From positions 1 to 45,882 of the forward strand of contig WFPN01000329.1 in the NCBI GenBank assembly GCA_015487535.1: a stretch of 45,882 bases of DNA, read 5' to 3'. How positions within the stretch are numbered: position 1 is the first letter of the stretch; each line of letters opens with the position of its first letter. A model generated the notes under the pieces. It was not told the DNA's origin. It worked only from the letters and a program-made list of their open reading frames with translations, and did no database searches. Below, one piece after another: positions 6,262 through 18,711 of this stretch. Source of the stretch: Aquificaceae bacterium. Its GTDB lineage: Bacteria; Aquificota; Aquificia; Aquificales; Aquificaceae. The translations under genes were made by a program, and so were the position numbers.

Positions 6262-7437
6262 ATGGGGGATTTGTTTGCTAAAAACGACTTGCAAGTTGGG
6301 AAAGATAAAAAAGAGTTGGAGAAAGATGCTACTAATGAATTGAAGGCTTTTGTGTTGGGTTTACACACTATCAAGGGAGTTGGATGGAAAGCACTAAGGC
6401 ATTTATTCCGAGCCTTAATTCAAGGTGAAGATGTTTTTTCCAGTCGTTCTAAGCTTTCAAAGTTGCTCCACGATGCGAGGGTGCCAAACTCTAAAGAAAT
6501 CGCAATTTCAATAATTGAGTCTTTAGACAAGATAAGGGATATTGGTTATGAGGAATACGAACGATTGAAAGGTATGGGGATAGATTTTCTTGTTGGAAGT
6601 GAGCTACCGGGAAGATTGCAGAACACTAATGGTGGGAAGCCGTATTGGTTGTTTATAGAAGGAGATAAGGAAGTATTTTTAACAGGGGGAAATTTGTTTG
6701 TTGGAATTGTTGGGACACGGAACCCCTCTGCGGAGGCTCAGAGGAGCATAGAAAAAATAGTGTGGTTGTTCAGCCGGTACCCTGTTGTAATAGTTTCAGG
6801 GCTTGCAAAGGGAATTGATTCTTGGGCGCATGCTATTAGCATAAAATCAGGTATAAGGAATATAGCTTTCCTTGGACATGGGCTACAAGTTCATACATCT
6901 AAGGAAAGTCGAGAACTTAGAAAAAAGATAATAGAATCTGGTGGAGCTATTGTTACCGAGTACTTCCCTAAAGAGCGCTACAGTAGGGAAAGATTTTTAC
7001 GTAGGAATAGGCTTATAGCCAGTTATAGTGATATTGTTATCCCTGTACAAGGCCGTGTTCCTGGAGGTACTTACTCTACAGTGTTACATGCATTGAAAAG
7101 CAATAAGCAGGTCATAGGTGTAGAGATGAAAGATAGTCCAATAACCGGATTTCTTAGGGAAAAAGGGTGTAGTGTTGTAGACGTGAACAAGCCTGACGAC
7201 TTGGTGTTACTGGACAAGCTTGTAAGATGCGTCCTTAGAAAGAAAGGTATAGACTTTGATGCTTTATCTTCTTTTAAGAAGAAAATTACGAGGTTGATTG
7301 AGAGGGAACTTTCATACCGGTATGTGGACGAAGAGTTCTATAATGACATACAATCGTTTTTGCGTGATTTGCCAAGATATGTGGAGGAAAAGCTGAGGGG
7401 GAAACATGTGGATCAAGGGGATTATAGTACATCCTGA
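6262..7437 (+). CDS. DprA/Smf-like (SLOG fold) protein, ShosA-like
   Basis: VGIVGTRNPS, IVSGLAKGIDSWAH, FLGHGL, GAIVTEY, FLRRNRLIASYS; visibly AT-rich DNA. Confidence 0.88.
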   Translation: MGDLFAKNDLQVGKDKKELEKDATNELKAFVLGLHTIKGVGWKALRHLFRALIQGEDVFSSRSKLSKLLHDARVPNSKEIAISIIESLDKIRDIGYEEYERLKGMGIDFLVGSELPGRLQNTNGGKPYWLFIEGDKEVFLTGGNLFVGIVGTRNPSAEAQRSIEKIVWLFSRYPVVIVSGLAKGIDSWAHAISIKSGIRNIAFLGHGLQVHTSKESRELRKKIIESGGAIVTEYFPKERYSRERFLRRNRLIASYSDIVIPVQGRVPGGTYSTVLHALKSNKQVIGVEMKDSPITGFLREKGCSVVDVNKPDDLVLLDKLVRCVLRKKGIDFDALSSFKKKITRLIERELSYRYVDEEFYNDIQSFLRDLPRYVEEKLRGKHVDQGDYSTS

Positions 7438-8542
7438 ACTTATACTTAAATGTAGCCAAGACGAATATGACGAACTCCGAAAATTTTTGCTGGATAATAA
7501 TCTACAGCTATTTGGGTTTTCGAATCGGAATTTAAATAAGTACAAACAAGCTACGGAAGATATAGGAGGGGTCTTTATCTCTAAGGTTGATGTAGGGAAA
7601 AACAAGGGGTCTCCTGAGTGGATCCATTATATAGAGAAGCGTTTTGGTATTACTCACAACGAACTGGTGTATATAGGCTATGGAAATAGAAAGCATGATT
7701 GGTATACTGCCATAAACTCATCCGTTTTCTACCTGCACTATGCACCAGAAAAGAAGGTGTCCAAAGATATTAGTAAGTATGTTCTCAGAACGGCAAGTGT
7801 ACAAGGGGCGTTAAAGTTTATAAATGTCTTTCTCAGAGACCCTCCACTTTTCACTTACGAGTTTACTTTTGAAGATGGGACGGAGCTTAGAATTCTTTTC
7901 GATGCTGGGGTTGAGCTAAAAGATGTAAATGGGGAATCATTCTCTCTCCGAGATCTATTTACCTACGACAAGATCTTCCTTTTAGGAAAGAAGCGTAAAA
8001 TAGATGCAAGGAGTATCCTATTTCTCCTTCTTATAGCCCAGTTGTGGAAGGAGGGTATAGCTTCACGGGGCGTAAGGTGGTGCGTATATCCTTCTTCAAA
8101 AAAGGGTAGAGTATCCAAAAATATGGAACCATACCTTAGATTTTTCAGGGGACTGACCGGGTCCTATTATGCCCAAATTTTGAAGCGGTGTAAAAATACG
8201 GTTGATAAGAGCAAGGCTCGTAAAGAAGGTAGGTACCATGAGGTGAGCTTTGATAGAGAAAAAGGTTCACTATGTTTAGATGAGAAGCAAAGTATAAAGG
8301 GCAGAAGGATTATTGTAGTTGACGATTTTTCAACTACTGGTATGTCCTTAGAGGCTGCAAAGCTCCTCTTGAGGAATGCTGGAGCTTCCCAAATAGCCTT
8401 ATGTGCTGTTGGTAAGTATGGTTCAAATCATACTGTATACGATGTTGAAGGCAACATCTCTTGTAATGTTAGGCTTTATCAGAATTTAGGGGCACAAGAA
8501 AGGTTGAAGGAGATAATAAATGAATGTAACGATTTATTTTAA
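7406..8542 (+). CDS. HAD-like + phosphoribosyltransferase protein, ShosT-like
   Basis: C-terminal PRPP-binding motif IIVVDDFSTTGMSL; N-terminal degenerate HAD-like segment (LVYIGYG..HDWYTAINS); overlaps the DprA gene. Confidence 0.75.
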   Translation: MWIKGIIVHPELILKCSQDEYDELRKFLLDNNLQLFGFSNRNLNKYKQATEDIGGVFISKVDVGKNKGSPEWIHYIEKRFGITHNELVYIGYGNRKHDWYTAINSSVFYLHYAPEKKVSKDISKYVLRTASVQGALKFINVFLRDPPLFTYEFTFEDGTELRILFDAGVELKDVNGESFSLRDLFTYDKIFLLGKKRKIDARSILFLLLIAQLWKEGIASRGVRWCVYPSSKKGRVSKNMEPYLRFFRGLTGSYYAQILKRCKNTVDKSKARKEGRYHEVSFDREKGSLCLDEKQSIKGRRIIVVDDFSTTGMSLEAAKLLLRNAGASQIALCAVGKYGSNHTVYDVEGNISCNVRLYQNLGAQERLKEIINECNDLF

Positions 8543-12094: not shown

Positions 12095-12509
12095 GAGGTT
12101 TGTTAAAGAGTTTTGGGAGCTGAACAAAAGTGTTCTCGAGAACAGAGACTACAGGGAGGACATATCGGATACATTCCCCGATTATTTACCCAAAGGCTGG
12201 ACATTCAAAAATGTTTCCCTTGGTTTTGATCTATGCAAGTGGACTGTGTATGCCTTTGTGTATTACTATGGGGAAGAATCCTTTGTAAAGGAGCTCTGGA
12301 AATGGTACCAGCAAAGGGGTATGAGTGTGGTTGTGCCAGAAGGATACTCCCACAGATCTAAGGCCGACATTACAAGGGTCGTGGAGCACATCGAGAAGAG
12401 GATAGACGAGATGGAGAAGAGGATTGCGGAGCTCAAGTTCCTTCTCGAGCACATAAGGAATCTGGTTGAGGACGGAACGGAGCTCGAAATTGACTTGGAG
12501 CTTGTTTAA
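12075..12509 (+). CDS. Hypothetical protein with C-terminal coiled coil
   Basis: GAGGAGG RBS, ATG 12075; IEKRIDEMEKRIAEL heptads. Confidence 0.65.
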   Translation: MPSARVKRFVKEFWELNKSVLENRDYREDISDTFPDYLPKGWTFKNVSLGFDLCKWTVYAFVYYYGEESFVKELWKWYQQRGMSVVVPEGYSHRSKADITRVVEHIEKRIDEMEKRIAELKFLLEHIRNLVEDGTELEIDLELV

Positions 12510-12528
12510 TAACGCTTATGATGTTATT
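12508..12528 (+). promoter_or_regulatory. Palindromic motif copy 2
   Basis: AATAAC-gcttatgat-GTTATT upstream of the AGGAGG of 12544. Confidence 0.75.
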
Positions 12529-12543
12529 ATATAGGAGGGCAAG

Positions 12544-13248
12544 ATGAAGAAGATCTACACTTCCTATTACAGCCTTTACTGTTCTAAAACAAGGCTTTTG
12601 AAGTCCAAGAGGCTCGCCGGGGTAAGGATAACTGTAGGGGTGCCGAGTTGGTGTAAGGAGAAGATAGAATACGAGTACCTTAAGCTCGCTCCCTTTGGCG
12701 TTCTTGGGGAAGAAGACTGGGGTGTTTACCGGGAGCTTTACTACAGTCGCATACTCGGCAGGCTTGACCCGAAAAGGGTTTACAGGGAGCTTTTAGAACT
12801 GACAAACCCTTACACCCCGGTCTTGCTCTGCTATGAACCTCCGAAGGAGGGGTACAACTGCCATAGGTGGCTTGTTGCTGAGTGGATGAAGGCTGCTGGT
12901 ATAGAAGTCGAAGAGTTTGGTTACAGGGGCTGGATAGACAAGTGGATTGCTGATCAGAGAAACCTCAAGGTTGCTGTGCCTCAGAGCAGGCAAGGCGATC
13001 TTTTTTCAGATCAGGTTAAAGAGATGGAGAGGAAGGCTAAGGAGAGGGCCAAGTATGTCAAAGTTCTTGGGTGCGAGGGGAGCGTCTGCAGGGTGGAGGG
13101 CAGTACGGGTAATGTTTATGAGGTGGATACGGAGAGAGGAACCTGTACTTGTCCCTTTTTTCAGAACCGTTGGGTCAAGTGCAAGCACATATATGCAGTA
13201 GAGAAGTATTTGGGCAAAGAGATAGAGGTTAAAGAGGTGGCCCGATGA
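12544..13248 (+). CDS. DUF488-like domain fused to a SWIM zinc finger
   Basis: KIYTSYY..., LKLAP, VLLCYE...CHRWLVAEW; C-terminal YEV...CTCP...CKHIYAV; QGDLF in the linker. Confidence 0.7.
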   Translation: MKKIYTSYYSLYCSKTRLLKSKRLAGVRITVGVPSWCKEKIEYEYLKLAPFGVLGEEDWGVYRELYYSRILGRLDPKRVYRELLELTNPYTPVLLCYEPPKEGYNCHRWLVAEWMKAAGIEVEEFGYRGWIDKWIADQRNLKVAVPQSRQGDLFSDQVKEMERKAKERAKYVKVLGCEGSVCRVEGSTGNVYEVDTERGTCTCPFFQNRWVKCKHIYAVEKYLGKEIEVKEVAR

Positions 13249-14657
13249 TATTCTTTGGTGCCCTACGAAAGCCCGAGAAGGCCTTTCTTGCTAAGCTTGG
13301 TATGGAAGGGGTTTTTGATGGAAGGGATGTTCAAGTAATCGGTAGCGGTAGCTTTACCATAGAGCAGACCCTGAGTAAGTTTTCTCCGAAAACAGTTTGC
13401 GGCAACGATATAAGTCTTCTGTCTGTGGTCATAGGGGACTACCTCGTTGGTAGAATGAGGGAAATTAGACTTAAGGACACTCGGGAGGCAGAGGCTTTTA
13501 GACCTTATGTGGAGGAAAGGCTCAACACAGATTCTCTTACTCAGGCTGCAACCATCTTAAGCGTATATCACTACACCGCCTACTTCCCGCTCAGCAATCT
13601 TTACAAAGTGAGGAAATTCAAGCAGGAGCTTTCCAAGTTTGACAAAGTCTTTGAGGGATGTATCGGCGTCCTGAAGGATTTCAAGAGTAAGGTCAGGATA
13701 GATGATTTTGTGGTCAAGGATGGTACGGAACTTGTAGGCGATAAAGAGAAGTTCTACATATGGCATCTGCCCTTCGACGAAGGGGACAGTTACCTTAAAG
13801 ACTACAGGCTTGTGAATGCTGTATTTGATTGGGATGCTCCCGAGTATAAGAAGATGACCAAAGAGAAGAACATATCTTTTTTAAGAAGGTTTGTGGAGGG
13901 AGGTTACGATTTCCTTTTCTTTACCTCTCATTATGTAGATGACTGCAAGGATTTTCTTATAGCTAAGTTCAAATACAGGGAAGGGGATACCGTATATGCT
14001 TACGGTAGAATTGGAAAGGGCAACGGAGTTTACTGGGCAAAAAGGTGGGGCCTCTCTATTAAAGACGGTAGGTACCCCCTTTTGCCTGATGATTTCGAAT
14101 TTGGTGAGGATGTAAATGTGTCTTTCAAGATCGTTAAGAGAGACGTCTTTAATTACTACCGGGAGCTGTTTATAGCTAAGGACAAGGTGAGGTTTTATGG
14201 CAACCCTTCTTCTGGGATACCCGTTCTCCTGTTCGCAAATGGCTGTCTTTTTGGTTTCCTCCTGTTTGCCCAGGATAGGTCCTCTTACAAGTTCGGGAAG
14301 AGGCCTACCGCATTCTTGCTTTCAGACTTCAGGGTAGCTTCTAATGTGCCTCGGCTCTCTAAGCTCGTGGTTATGCTCGCAAAGGCTGCTGAGTTCAAAG
14401 ACATTTATGAGAAAGCTTTTGGGGTTAAGACCGAAGAGATCATGACTGCGGTTTATACGGAGAAGCCTGTGTCTATGAAGTATGAGAGAGGAACAGGGTG
14501 GAGGTGTGTTAATAGGGCAAAGAGAAGATTCGGGGATACTGAGGTTTTTTATCTCACATATAGGGCACCTTTCGGTGAAAAGAGCCTTAGGGAGGAGTAT
14601 CTCCTATGGCTTGAGAAGCACTACAGGAGGGTTAGGCATGGGGCCGCAGAGTCTTGA
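13245..14657 (+). CDS. Adenine-methyltransferase-like Rossmann domain + C-terminal GNAT-like domain; putative DNA-modifying enzyme
   Basis: IGSGSFTIE (motif-I-like), GNDIS, VKDG, HLPF at the motif-IV position; C-terminal LLSDF...RLSKLV...TAVYTEKPVSMKY; adjacent ParB-like gene. Confidence 0.6.
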   Translation: MIFFGALRKPEKAFLAKLGMEGVFDGRDVQVIGSGSFTIEQTLSKFSPKTVCGNDISLLSVVIGDYLVGRMREIRLKDTREAEAFRPYVEERLNTDSLTQAATILSVYHYTAYFPLSNLYKVRKFKQELSKFDKVFEGCIGVLKDFKSKVRIDDFVVKDGTELVGDKEKFYIWHLPFDEGDSYLKDYRLVNAVFDWDAPEYKKMTKEKNISFLRRFVEGGYDFLFFTSHYVDDCKDFLIAKFKYREGDTVYAYGRIGKGNGVYWAKRWGLSIKDGRYPLLPDDFEFGEDVNVSFKIVKRDVFNYYRELFIAKDKVRFYGNPSSGIPVLLFANGCLFGFLLFAQDRSSYKFGKRPTAFLLSDFRVASNVPRLSKLVVMLAKAAEFKDIYEKAFGVKTEEIMTAVYTEKPVSMKYERGTGWRCVNRAKRRFGDTEVFYLTYRAPFGEKSLREEYLLWLEKHYRRVRHGAAES

Positions 14658-15591
14658 AGAGGTTGCGAGGATAGGGAAATTCAAGATAGGGTTCGTTGAC
14701 CCAAGGGATCTTAAGCTCCTTGAAAAGAACGCAAGGTATATGCCTGCGGAGATGTTTGACAGGCTTGTCCAGAACATCAAAAGGGATAAGCAACTCAGTT
14801 CTGTCCCCTTCTGCTACCTTGACCCTGAGAGTGATGAAATGGTCGTGCTTTCAGGGAATCACCGTGTCCGTGCCGCTATTGCTGCTGGGGTTGATAGGAT
14901 TCCCGTAATGTGGAATGCGGAGCCGATGACGGAGGACGAGAGGATAGCTATCCAGCTATCACACAACGCCATACAGGGGATGGATGATCTCCAGATACTC
15001 AAGGACCTGTATGAAAAGATCAATGATATTGAGTTGAGGGAATACTCGGCGGTTGACATAGCCTACGACCTGTCCGATCTGGAGGATGTTGACTCCAAGG
15101 AGATAGAGGCTGAGCTCATTGCTACTCCGGAGTTGCCCGAGAAGACCGTGATCCTACTCTTTACGGACGAAGAGGAGGAGAGGATAAGGAAGGTGCTCGA
15201 GAAGTATGAAGAGAGTATGGTGCTGATAGCCCACAAAGATCAGTACGAGAAGTTCAACGAAATAGTTGCCAAGCTCAGGGAGGAATACGATATCTTCAAC
15301 CTTTCCACGGTTTTCCTGTTGATGATAGAGGGGTTTGACAAGGTCATGGAGGGGGAGAAGAGGTTTGAAGATGTCTATGGGGGAGATATGGACGTTGAGG
15401 GCATGGTTCACTGGAGGATAGGTGGTGCGAAAGGAGTTGTGGACGTGAGAGTGGCAAGGAAGCTTAAGGGCTTCGTTGACAAGTACGGGATCGACGGCGT
15501 TGTTAACATGCTTGAGGAGTATGAGGCCAAGAGGGTTATAGATGAGCACCTTGACAGGGCGGGATTCCCTGATATTGAAGGACTTTCTTAA
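14638..15591 (+). CDS. ParB/Srx N-terminal domain protein
   Basis: KNARYM...LVQNIKRD...VVLSGNHRVRAA...QLSHNAIQG; AGGAGG before ATG 14638. Confidence 0.85.
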   Translation: MGPQSLEEVARIGKFKIGFVDPRDLKLLEKNARYMPAEMFDRLVQNIKRDKQLSSVPFCYLDPESDEMVVLSGNHRVRAAIAAGVDRIPVMWNAEPMTEDERIAIQLSHNAIQGMDDLQILKDLYEKINDIELREYSAVDIAYDLSDLEDVDSKEIEAELIATPELPEKTVILLFTDEEEERIRKVLEKYEESMVLIAHKDQYEKFNEIVAKLREEYDIFNLSTVFLLMIEGFDKVMEGEKRFEDVYGGDMDVEGMVHWRIGGAKGVVDVRVARKLKGFVDKYGIDGVVNMLEEYEAKRVIDEHLDRAGFPDIEGLS

Positions 15592-16429
15592 GAGGTACAG
15601 GGATCAAATAGTATCTCTGCGGAAGTTTCTTAGCCTTTGTCGAGGGATAGATCACTATCTTCTTTCCTTTCCCGTCCTCGCCACATACTACGACCTTCTG
15701 GGGTTGCTTGAAAAGAGGCATGTTGTTTTTTTGGATGGTCTTGTGCTTCTACTTGACAAAAAGGTTGCGGTACACTTTGGGGGAGATTACGACCTTTCCT
15801 CTCTTGAGGGCTGGGTTGTCAAAACCTCTGACAAGCTTTCTTGTGCTGGGAGGACTTTTGTTGAAACTCTGTATGACCTTGAGGAGCTTTTTGACCCTGG
15901 AAGGTACGGGAGAGAGGAGAGGAAGAAGAGGCTAAGGAGGCCTTTGAAGATTATAGAAAAAGACTGTGTTAACGTAAGGGTTTTGGAAGGGGACTGGGTT
16001 AAAAAAGCCATCAAGCTTTCTGAGAGGTGGGAGGAAGAAAAGGTTAAATCTGGAAAAGTTTATGTTCGGGGATTTCCGAAGGGTGAGTTCAGGAGAATGC
16101 TCGAGAGGTTTTTAGTGTGGAGGAAGTTTGACGTGCTGGACGGGTACCTCTTCGGCGTTTTTGTGAAGGATAAACCCTATTACATAGGGGTTGATGTTTT
16201 CATTAACCCTGAGGTGGTCTTCGGGATTTGTGGGTTCGCCCTTTACTTTGACTTTGAGAAAAGCTACGGTAATGAGGCCTTTCTTAGCGAGTGTATGTTC
16301 CTCCAGGGAAGGGGACACAAAAGGCTTAACGTAGGGTTTTCTACTGATAAAGGGGTTCGGAGGTTTAAGGAGAAATGGGTACACAGATCTCTGAAAAGCT
16401 TTCAATACAGGATCTCAAAGATTTCCTAA
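15542..16429 (+). CDS. Fem/MprF(DUF2156)-like GNAT-fold transferase, paralog 1
   Basis: ETLYDL, basic helix RKKRLRR, C-terminal RLNVGFSTDKGVRRFKEKW. Confidence 0.5.
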   Translation: MSTLTGRDSLILKDFLKRYRDQIVSLRKFLSLCRGIDHYLLSFPVLATYYDLLGLLEKRHVVFLDGLVLLLDKKVAVHFGGDYDLSSLEGWVVKTSDKLSCAGRTFVETLYDLEELFDPGRYGREERKKRLRRPLKIIEKDCVNVRVLEGDWVKKAIKLSERWEEEKVKSGKVYVRGFPKGEFRRMLERFLVWRKFDVLDGYLFGVFVKDKPYYIGVDVFINPEVVFGICGFALYFDFEKSYGNEAFLSECMFLQGRGHKRLNVGFSTDKGVRRFKEKWVHRSLKSFQYRISKIS

Positions 16430-17247
16430 AGAAGTACAAGGACAGGGTCGTATCGTTGAAAAAGGTTATAGAGGAATTTCCTCCTTTCCAAGAGCATGCG
16501 TGTTCTTTTCCTGTCAGCTCTCTTTTCCACGACCTTGTGGGGTCTTTAAGAGACGGCTCCGTTATTCTGCTTGACGGGGCTATTGTCTATCTAAAGAGCG
16601 CAACTGTTGTGCTTTACAAAGACATTCTTTACGAGTTCCCTACTGGCTTTCAGATTAAGACGCCGTTTGAGCTCCCGTACAGAAACAGAAAAAAACTTAA
16701 GGAAATTCTCTACCGGTTGCCTGACATCTTCGAGAGGTCTATGTACAGGAATTCTGATGCCTTCAGGAACAGAATGCGGTATTTGAAAAAGCTTGAGAAG
16801 GCGGGATATGCTGAGAGGGATGTGACCAGGGATAACATAGGCGATGCTGTTAAGGTGCACGACGAGTGGGTAAGGTACAAGCTTTCTCTTCCCTCCACCT
16901 TTAAGAAGTCTTTCCCGAAGGCTAAGTACATCTCCATGCTCAGGAACTGCATGAATGCGAGATTGTTCCCCTACAAGGCTCTTGTGGGTTACATAGGCGA
17001 TGAACCTGTGTCTTTGACTCTTTATCTGATCTGGCGTGGGATGGTTTATTCACTTATTGGTATTAGTAAATACTGGGAGCACAAGCACTTGTCCGAAGGA
17101 GTATTTCTCTATCAGGCGAGGAAGCTCTTGGAGGATGGGCACGAATACGTTAATGTTGGGTATGAGCAGAACAGGGGGATAGGTAACTTTAAGCGGGAGA
17201 AGTTTCCGTATATAGAGGTGGCCACGAATATTTACCTTGTCAAATAA
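16375..17247 (+). CDS. Fem/MprF(DUF2156)-like GNAT-fold transferase, paralog 2
   Basis: EILYRL, FRNRMRYL, YVNVGYEQNRGIGNFKREKFP; aligns by eye end to end with paralog 1. Confidence 0.5.
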   Translation: MGTQISEKLSIQDLKDFLKKYKDRVVSLKKVIEEFPPFQEHACSFPVSSLFHDLVGSLRDGSVILLDGAIVYLKSATVVLYKDILYEFPTGFQIKTPFELPYRNRKKLKEILYRLPDIFERSMYRNSDAFRNRMRYLKKLEKAGYAERDVTRDNIGDAVKVHDEWVRYKLSLPSTFKKSFPKAKYISMLRNCMNARLFPYKALVGYIGDEPVSLTLYLIWRGMVYSLIGISKYWEHKHLSEGVFLYQARKLLEDGHEYVNVGYEQNRGIGNFKREKFPYIEVATNIYLVK

Positions 17248-17268
17248 CGATTTTTATGTTATTATAAT
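17237..17268 (+). promoter_or_regulatory. Palindromic motif copy 3 with promoter elements
   Basis: AATAAC-gatttttat-GTTATT (17243-17263); TTGTCA (17237) 17 bp from TATTAT; TATAAT at 17263-17268. Confidence 0.75.
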
Positions 17269-17904: not shown

Positions 17905-18711
17905 GTGGGGTTTGCAGAAGTAATAGAAGAGCTATCCAGGAAAGGGTTTTCAGTTACCGACACTACCCGTGACCTCATAGACACCATTTTTATATCCTTT
18001 CACAACCGTGTGAACACCCTTTTGGGAGAAAGGGACAAGTACGAGGAACTCGAGAAGGAGTACCTGAGGGTTATAGAGCCTTACAAGAAGAGGGGCGTTC
18101 TGGATCTGTTCGTTTCTGCTTTTGCGGGACTTATAAAGGACATGGAGGAAAACCCTTATGAGGACATCCTCGGGGAGTACTACCTGGAGCAAAAGGCGAA
18201 GATCGACAGGCAATACAGGGGACAGTTCTTCACGCCTCCCAACGTGGCGGACTGCATGGTAGAGATAACCTTCTCTCTGAAGGAGATAGAGGAGAAAGGA
18301 GTTATAACCGCCTGTGAACCTGCAGCAGGGGCGGGGATATTTCCCTTGAGAGCTGCGAAATGGCTCGTTCAGAACAAGCTCTCGGTTAGGTCGGTGAGGT
18401 GGACGCTCTGGGAGATAGACCCTGTGTTTTTCAAAATAGCTTACATAAACACGACCCTCTGGGGAATACCTGCGGTTGTGATTCATGGGGACTCTCTGAA
18501 AGGTGAGGCTTTGGGTGTGTATCCGAATCTTCACTTCTTAGTACACCCTGTATTACTTGAAGGGGGAGTAGCTCAACTGGATAGAGCCCGGGGGTTATCC
18601 CCGGAGGTTGGGGGTTCGAGTCCCCCCTCCCCCACGGGTCGAACGGCGCCGTTTATGGAGGAGGGGAAGCTCTCCTCCTCCAGCCCGTTAAAACAGTTGA
18701 GGTTGTTTTGA
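17905..18711 (+). CDS. Truncated HsdM-like N6-adenine methyltransferase family protein lacking NPPY/F
   Basis: DILGEYY, GQFFTP, EPAAGAG, EID, HGDSL; no motif IV; ends in QLRLF. Confidence 0.8.
   Translation: MGFAEVIEELSRKGFSVTDTTRDLIDTIFISFHNRVNTLLGERDKYEELEKEYLRVIEPYKKRGVLDLFVSAFAGLIKDMEENPYEDILGEYYLEQKAKIDRQYRGQFFTPPNVADCMVEITFSLKEIEEKGVITACEPAAGAGIFPLRAAKWLVQNKLSVRSVRWTLWEIDPVFFKIAYINTTLWGIPAVVIHGDSLKGEALGVYPNLHFLVHPVLLEGGVAQLDRARGLSPEVGGSSPPSPTGRTAPFMEEGKLSSSSPLKQLRLF
18562..18634 (+). tRNA. tRNA-like element with an abnormal anticodon arm (tRNA-Arg-like D arm)
   Basis: Acceptor GGGGGAG/CTCCCCC, TA, D arm GCTC-AACTGGATA-GAGC, arm CCGGG-GGTTATC-CCCGG, AGGTT, T arm GGGGG-TTCGAGT-CCCCC, discriminator A; no encoded CCA; nucleotide 26, U33 and purine 37 absent. 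Confidence 0.8.

Follow-up and report, generated by a model that had tools for sequence, protein, structure and literature searches.

Within the literature searched, Mom of phage Mu is the one proven case in which a charged tRNA is used to modify DNA. In the Mom paper (PMC13219725), Gly-tRNA-Gly is described as being used on adenine N6, the product N6-glycyl-adenine as unstable and rearranging to an amide without a free amine, and donor and acceptor as not predictable from the fold. For the phage 7-deazaguanine pathways, the known tailoring of dPreQ1, by DpdM and DpdN, is with methyl and formyl groups according to PMC10516641; a word search of its main text found neither GNAT nor acetyltransferase.

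A prophage operon of five genes was analyzed in a stretch of 45,882 nucleotides from an Aquificaceae bacterium (contig WFPN01000329.1, assembly GCA_015487535.1, genome G000), referred to as the window. The operon consists of two joined parts, a widespread three-gene core and a pair of Fem/MprF-like genes (the Fem pair), and is not one widespread system. It very probably modifies DNA. The preferred reading, held tentatively and at somewhat below an even chance, is that the core aminoacylates adenine from a charged tRNA and that the Fem pair extends the resulting amine. A literature search by title or start of abstract, outside most subscription journals, returned no description of the core or of a Fem-type DNA enzyme. 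Iyer et al. 2013 reportedly deals with predicted phage base-modification systems and may discuss ParB/GNAT neighbours.

Organization of the operon

The following features were annotated in and around the operon:

Gene 1: 12544-13248, + strand; DUF488-like domain and SWIM zinc finger, core member.
Gene 2: 13245-14657, + strand; Dam-fold domain fused to a Mom-like GNAT, predicted primary base acyltransferase.
Gene 3: 14638-15591, + strand; ParB/Srx-fold protein with intact GNHR box, predicted NTP-using helper.
Gene 4: 15542-16429, + strand; diverged Fem/MprF-like paralog, assigned by homology.
Gene 5: 16375-17247, + strand; FemX/MprF/DUF2156-fold protein, modelled, predicted aminoacyl-tRNA-dependent transferase.
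Upstream motif copy: 12509..12527, + strand; near-palindrome ATAAC-N9-GTTAT, at the same position in the sister prophage (L007:8785).
Downstream motif copy: 17244..17262, + strand; overlaps the gene 5 stop, sister counterpart at L007:13718.
tRNA-like gene: 18562..18634, + strand; Arg-type body with a broken anticodon loop.

Successive genes overlap by 4, 20, 50 and 55 nt. The start of gene 3 was placed at an ATG with a GGAGG site, the same ATG at which the sister-prophage alignment begins. The open reading frames, their overlaps and the motif copies at 12509 and 17244 confirmed the preliminary description, which had reported five overlapping genes bracketed by two copies of the motif; the downstream copy simply heads the next unit. 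Eight copies of the motif were found in the window, all on the + strand and ahead of gene starts, against 0.01 expected from Markov shuffles, an expectation that is post hoc because the pattern was drawn from these same sites. The remaining 1.6 Mb of the genome contained one match, inside the left arm of the same prophage. The motif is likely a phage-wide operator or promoter.

In the sister prophage, in genome G017, the same five genes were observed in the same order, flanked by the same two motif copies. Judged against this prophage, all five genes are under purifying selection, and genes 4 and 5 are intact and constrained (pN 0.22-0.24, pS 0.67-0.82). Genes 2, 4 and 5 also seem to have homologs on a third contig, of 29,569 bases. 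In a phylum-wide search of 178 genomes, the Fem family was found in G000 and G017 only. One further candidate, G078, was rejected, its matching region being full of stops.

The sister cassette directly precedes the terminase genes. This position would suit an operon that modifies no DNA and serves packaging, segregation or anti-defence through protein acylation, an alternative considered highly improbable, since the Dam fold, the Mom-like GNAT, the private Gly-tRNAs and the Dpd-linked Fem relatives all indicate DNA bases.

The three-gene core

For gene 3, matches were obtained to PHROG 7405 (E 2e-55) and to named ParB families (E 1e-13 to 1e-5), together with a weak match to Pfam ParB_N (E 0.07). 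A ParB-like domain was found with its GNHR box, including the box II arginine, whose role in the ParB/Srx fold is covered in PMC12704722; the original ParB/Srx assignment was thus upheld. Gene 1 had been named DUF488-SWIM, of which the SWIM part was supported above the Pfam cut-off and the DUF488-N3a part remained sub-threshold (E 4e-4); the protein also matched PHROG 2450 (E 2e-20).

Gene 2 matched PF22555 DAM-like-phage1 (E 5e-28, 98.7 bits) and PF22559 GNAT-phage-like (E 1e-27, 97.4 bits), against a Pfam cut-off of 27, and gave no match to Pfam Mom. In a fold search of its model (pLDDT 88), the N-domain matched E. coli Dam, DpnM and T4 Dam (Z 11.8-12.8). The top GNAT for the C-domain was Mu Mom (8bv8; Z 11.0, rmsd 3.0, 148 aligned), with other GNATs within 1 Z of it, for example at 10.2. 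The catalytic residues of Mom are R111 and S124. The proposed fusion of a methyltransferase-like fold to a GNAT-like domain was therefore recovered as a Dam fold joined to a GNAT with Mom as its top GNAT match.

The catalytic motif IV of Dam-type N6-adenine methyltransferases is (D/N)PP(Y/F). In gene 2, the non-canonical HLPF noted earlier was confirmed at residues 174-177; homologs show F-(L/P)-P-T-Y at this place, and the D/N of DPPY is absent from all those aligned. SAM motif I is kept in gene 2 as GSGSF, plus ND, and across the family there is strong conservation of N54-D55 and of the region of motif I (G-C/S-S-G-x-F). Such conservation would be expected if the Dam-fold domain were an active SAM-dependent transferase (e.g., aminocarboxypropyl) making an amine for subsequent acylation by the GNAT and the Fem pair, and an alkyl-linked amine would be stable, unlike the N6-glycyl product. 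The altered motif IV argues against this explanation, as do the core clade members L055, L065 and L075, which have lost the Dam motifs yet retain the GNAT, ParB and Gly-tRNA; it is regarded as quite improbable.

In gene 2, moreover, the near-invariant KYRG motif is lengthened by one inserted residue (KYERG), seen in P0004 as well and not in the sister. A frameshift was rejected as its origin because P0004 shares the insertion. This insertion was counted against the preferred reading.

The core, defined as DUF488, the PF22555-PF22559 fusion and ParB, was found at 146 loci, cultured mycobacteriophages included. ParB lay directly downstream in 133 of 137 loci with room, and a DUF488 homolog was present in 90 of 108. 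In IMG/VR, a single-protein scan with gene 2 gave no match, and an alignment was required to find homologs.

The Fem pair stood beside the core at only one of the 146 loci, that of the sister prophage, with 119 loci having at least 2 kb beyond ParB. The five genes do not form a general system, and the suggested gene-neighbourhood survey gave a divided answer, the five genes recurring together in the sister prophage and the core occurring elsewhere without the pair. Since 145 of 146 core loci lack a Fem gene, the second step would be dispensable, and this too was held against the preferred reading. In another clade the core carries a fused amidoligase, an independent gain of amide-forming capacity.

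tRNA genes near the core

Of the 124 core loci that had 300 nt or more upstream, 42 carried, on the same strand and no more than 4.5 kb upstream, a tRNA-like gene whose acceptor set is of the Gly type (G1-C72, C2-G71, mostly G3-C70, U73; identity set taken from Table 1 of PMC9976931). These tRNA-like genes comprised 32 distinct sequences, and 31 of the 42 lay outside the training set. In phage Jeon, an annotated tRNA-Gly overlaps the gene start.

No Gly-type tRNA was found at the window cassette or the sister cassette, which weighs against the preferred reading. The tRNA-like gene at 18562 was rejected as a Gly donor, being without C2-G71 and U73 and scoring E 0.18 with the Gly model. It is possibly a private donor RNA for the operon; no counterpart was found in the sister prophage.

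Fold and conservation of genes 4 and 5

Genes 4 and 5 are tandem paralogs, 29% identical over 268 aa (E 6e-28), in which the motifs quoted in the preliminary description were all present. The model of gene 5 (pLDDT 95.7) gave as top fold matches 2hqy, L-PGS, MprF, Sbb17, FemX and FemA (Z 14.1-18.4), compared with Z 12.7 for the best GNAT outside the FemX/MprF group. The predicted FemX/MprF fold was thereby substantiated for gene 5; for gene 4 it is predicted from homology. Neither gene had a Pfam match, LPG_synthase_C and FemAB included, the best homolog reaching 26.2 bits against a cut-off of 27.5.

K273 was found in 89/89 other family members and in both paralogs, and N260 in 85/89. The family-invariant residues are largely intact in gene 5. 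Gene 4 has lost His41, His162, Arg184 and Tyr185 and retains W165, K169, N260, G262, F272 and K273 (gene 5 numbering). The C-terminal FK tRNA-end motif and the N.G of the family align with L-PGS; a search of one review found no mention of this tRNA-end role. In a quick tree the four paralogs grouped with support 92 near the P0009 and P0012 clades, a placement that is suggestive only. A tblastn search of cultured phages with a Fem homolog gave no match.

Genomic context of the Fem family

Que/Dpd genes, usually adjacent, were present in 24 of 39 distinct Fem-family loci and, among the 18 that span 3 kb or more, in 13. The closer relative P0012 lies inside a full QueD/QueE/FolE/QueC/QueF cluster. 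The subclade alignments A6, A10 and A11 yielded no loci in the context scans, so that the Fem neighbourhoods described here come from the main clade and P0012 alone. The remaining five of the 18 long loci had no Que/Dpd gene, an observation counted against the preferred reading.

The E(S/L)KS motif, which marks preQ1-forming reductases (PMC10516641), was present in 9 of 12 neighbouring QueFs; these sequences make a DNA-base amine the likely Fem-family acceptor. An unlikely alternative is that the core modifies DNA and the Fem pair only shares its promoter, aminoacylating some other target (tRNA, lipid, cell wall, or a protein of the virion or the host). In favour of this, every fold match with a solved structure has lipids, peptidoglycan or small molecules as substrates, and the family loci L124-L126, L128 and L132 are without DNA-modification neighbours. 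Against this, two unrelated DNA-modification platforms have each acquired members of the Fem family, and the pair overlaps core genes in two diverged prophages.

The same context fits a further alternative, in which the core modifies adenine alone and the Fem pair acylates dPreQ1. A phage TGT/DpdA would insert this base using preQ1 from the host, its gene being recently lost here or lying in unassembled DNA. About 11 kb upstream in the sister prophage lies a gene for a TGT/DpdA-like protein (Pfam TGT E 6e-11), which was likewise counted against the preferred reading, and the host carries QueC, QueD, QueE, QueF and FolE; an ancestral preQ1 substrate was therefore on offer. DpdA and the core also occur within one locus in L066/L067. 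However, no DpdA/TGT-like gene was found in the assembled part of the prophage (right end unassembled, G000 79% complete), the only TGT in G000 is host-type and on a different contig, and in the window nothing occupies the slot, flanked by initiator and DnaB, that is syntenic with the sister's TGT gene. The Fem pair, moreover, is intact and embedded in the core operon, not beside a TGT gene. This alternative is rated as rather unlikely.

Proposed function

Gene neighbourhoods favour DNA base modification, as first suggested, for both the core and the Fem pair. Because Fem relatives occur in 7-deazaguanine DNA-modification clusters, the prophage likely decorates the bases of its own DNA with amino acids delivered by tRNA. 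Under the preferred reading, the bases of phage DNA would receive a short amino-acid tag, built in two steps that each depend on tRNA.

In the first step, the Dam-fold domain of gene 2 would bind DNA and flip out adenine, and its Mom-like GNAT would transfer an aminoacyl group to adenine N6; glycine donated by host Gly-tRNA is the likeliest candidate, and the NTP-using ParB and DUF488-SWIM proteins are putative helpers. In the second, gene 5, whose family probably acylates the preQ1 amine in DNA elsewhere, would extend the adduct at its free amine with another amino acid. Since N6-glycyl-adenine rearranges, this step would have to outrun the rearrangement, and the instability was also counted against the preferred reading. 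Gene 4, a diverged copy, may differ in specificity or serve a role other than catalysis. The tag would presumably shield the DNA against host nucleases.

A broader proposal, possible though doubtful, is that a portable Fem/MprF-fold family aminoacylates DNA-base amines, normally dPreQ1, and was here grafted and duplicated onto a Mom-like adenine platform, building a short tRNA-derived peptide directly on DNA in the way that FemX/A/B build theirs on the cell wall, perhaps fed by the 18562 tRNA. If true, the Fem/MprF fold would be a second enzyme class modifying DNA from tRNA, stacked on a first tRNA-dependent step, and a candidate amino-acid tailoring enzyme for dPreQ1 would be named. The core is present in cultured phages (cluster W mycobacteriophages and Gordonia phage Clawz) and hence testable, and the likely thermophilic host would make the enzymes convenient for biochemistry and DNA labelling.

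Comparison with known systems

Like gene 2, Mycobacterium phage Jeon gp68 and Gordonia phage Clawz gp29 combine PF22555 and PF22559, with ParB next and DUF488 upstream. Unlike this operon, both have a Gly-type tRNA upstream and no Fem pair.

With the 7-deazaguanine clusters (PMC10516641) the link is through the Fem family, which sits in such clusters, often beside a CxxCxxCC protein resembling DpdM; the window, in contrast, contains no Que/Dpd genes.

FemX/FemA/FemB, the MprF aminoacyl-PG synthases, DUF2156 and Sbb17 share with gene 5 a tandem-GNAT fold over about 230-250 residues, and the W..K, F...Y, N.G and L..FK features of L-PGS align with the family. Identity is about 10-14%; the genes described here are phage-encoded and without a membrane domain, and their family's neighbours point to DNA bases, whereas the known enzymes act on lipid or cell wall.

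Phage Mu Mom (8bv8; PMC13219725) shares the GNAT fold as the top GNAT match of the gene 2 C-domain, is likewise a phage gene with adenine in DNA as the likely common target, and has a parallel in the Gly-type tRNA genes that adjoin many gene 2 homologs. Mom is a single stand-alone enzyme, whereas the GNAT of this operon, predicted to be an acyltransferase, is fused to a Dam fold and accompanied by ParB, DUF488 and two Fem-type genes.

Prophage context and organization of the operon

Most of a myovirus-like prophage, with recognisable replication, terminase, capsid, sheath and baseplate genes, was identified by ORF reading in the window; its left arm lies on contig C263 of the same genome, where the integrase adjoins host tRNA-Cys and tRNA-Gly. 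The prophage was colinear with a sister prophage from the same genus (genome G017), at approximately 40–86% protein identity. The cassette of locus L155 was the same as that of G017, and the two were counted once. Homologs of genes 2, 4 and 5, with protein identities of 80%, 76% and 91%, respectively, all came from a 29,569-base contig; from this shared source, we take the contig to represent a probable third phage. A two-gene insert at 6262–8542 was absent from the sister prophage; by eye, we take its products to resemble DprA and a phosphoribosyltransferase-like protein.

All five overlapping ORFs of the preliminary description were present (overlaps of 4, 20, 50 and 55 nt; ParB start at 14638), and their proposed bracketing by motif copies recurred around the same five genes in G017.

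12544–13248, +, gene 1, DUF488-SWIM
13245–14657, +, gene 2, Dam-like fold with GNAT
14638–15591, +, gene 3, ParB
15542–16429 and 16375–17247, +, genes 4 and 5, Fem/MprF-like paralogs (Fem pair)
2304, 11260, 12509, 17244, 23288, 25688, 27716, 34557, 43606, near-palindromic motif found phage-wide, preceding blocks of middle and late genes

The motif was kept in the sister prophage. Eight copies of ATAAC-N9-GTTAT were found ahead of gene starts in the window, and the sole match in the remaining 1.6 Mb of the genome fell in the left arm of the same prophage. Compared with G017, every operon gene yielded pN of 0.16–0.24 and pS of 0.67–0.82.

The core and its Gly-type tRNA

Gene 2 consists of PF22555 and PF22559. 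As forecast, its model combined a methyltransferase-like N-domain, matching Dam methylases, with a GNAT C-domain, for which phage Mu Mom was the best GNAT, others lying within 1 Z. Since motif I was retained and motif IV lost, gene 2 is not a standard methylase. Acylation of a SAM-derived amine was considered very doubtful.

The core (genes 1–3) was surveyed in 146 redundant, non-independent loci: the best 80 of 227 IMG/VR matches, 64 genome loci and 2 cultured phages, taken from 15 matching phage records. In this set, including those best 80 of 227, ParB lay 3′ of the gene 2 homolog in 133/137 loci with room, and DUF488 was present in 90/108. At L066/L067:3439–7991, DpdA shared one locus with a Gly-acceptor tRNA and with the DUF488, Dam-GNAT and ParB genes, which places two modification platforms next to each other.

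A covariance model trained on 11 ARAGORN tRNAs, run upstream of core genes, detected a Gly-acceptor tRNA-like gene in 42 of the 124 loci with room (best 80 of 227 IMG/VR matches included). Of these 42, 19 had the tRNA-like gene no farther than 300 nt away, and 31 had not been used for training. Among 19 control Fem-family loci the model gave 3 weak matches, two of them at ordinary Ala and Ser tRNAs. Mom moves glycine from Gly-tRNA to adenine N6 (PMC13219725); because of this and of the upstream Gly-acceptor tRNA genes, the core would most likely act like Mom. The same search found no private Gly tRNA in the cassettes of the window or the sister prophage, which would draw on host tRNA, as Mom does.

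Two further genes follow the operon:

17905–18711, lone gene resembling N6-adenine methylases (Pfam N6_Mtase, E 4e-8)
18562–18634, +, tRNA-like gene (Rfam, 50.9 bits)

The tRNA-like gene sits within the tail of the methylase ORF. Its acceptor and T stems are fully paired, it is 81% like host tRNA-Arg(ACG), D-arm included, and its anticodon arm is one base short (ARAGORN anticodon TTA). In the sister prophage, no counterpart of it was found, and the methylase-like gene was absent from the corresponding position.

Fold and neighbourhood of the Fem pair

Gene 5 had no Pfam match, and its relatives numbered 81 at the 50% cluster level, at least one (P0062) being spurious. The anticipated Fem/MprF fold was confirmed for gene 5 by structure-model search (pLDDT 95.7), with DUF2156, L-PGS, MprF, Sbb17, FemX and FemA outranking other GNATs; its profile reached L-PGS at E 0.004, and an atlas search was concordant. 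The near-invariant family residues were largely retained in gene 5. Because gene 4 and its two orthologs had H41, H162, R184 (to Glu) and Y185 replaced (gene 5 numbering) yet kept W165, K169, N260, G262 and FK, genes 4 and 5 appear to have diverged in role.

The five-gene combination recurred in the sister prophage, but elsewhere the expected co-occurrence failed: the Fem family adjoined the core in just 1/146 loci (best 80 of 227 IMG/VR matches included), that of the sister prophage itself. Que/Dpd (7-deazaguanine) genes occurred in 24 of the 39 distinct Fem-family loci (47 in all). Among those of at least 3 kb, they were present in 13/18 (DpdA in 10, QueF in 9) and absent from 5/18. P0012, a nearer relative, was flanked by QueC and a CxxCxxCC protein within a complete cluster; across L088–L138, Fem-fold genes often stood directly upstream of the CxxCxxCC (DpdM-like) gene. 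In known phages, preQ1, the product of QueF, undergoes methylation or formylation at its primary amine (PMC10516641); the natural family role would thus be aminoacylation of this amine, making the family a candidate dPreQ1 aminoacyltransferase.

Acceptor of the Fem pair

No DpdA was found in the prophage of the window, whose right end is unassembled, and the only TGT in its genome was host-type, on contig C200. Since both Fem genes are intact and coupled in translation to those of the core, the simplest acceptor for the pair would be a core-made amine. We tentatively read the operon as a two-step adenine tag, core modification followed by Fem-pair extension, at somewhat less than even likelihood. 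Against it, the glycyl-adenine of Mom rearranges with loss of the free amine (PMC13219725), the host makes preQ1, and the sister prophage carries the following gene:

L135:18066–18776 (G017 prophage), short TGT/DpdA-like gene between initiator and DnaB, without phage Que genes

Host preQ0/preQ1 may serve as substrate for its product. The gene and host preQ1 production also favour dPreQ1 as the Fem-pair acceptor, which we nonetheless regard as quite unlikely. A PAPS-reductase-like gene lies nearby (L007:1662–2525). Action of the pair on a non-DNA target is unlikely, and an operon that modifies no DNA is improbable.

A core clade (L055, L065, L074–L085) carried an amidoligase-GNAT fusion, degenerate Dam motifs and an extra GNAT upstream. 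The fusion and extra GNAT in this separate clade fit repeated recruitment of chain-extending enzymes to the core.

Open-access literature, screened by title or start of abstract, yielded no paper on either the core or a Fem-type DNA enzyme. The locus adds a bridge: a single Fem-fold family occurring with two DNA-modification platforms that are unrelated to each other, here duplicated and diverged.
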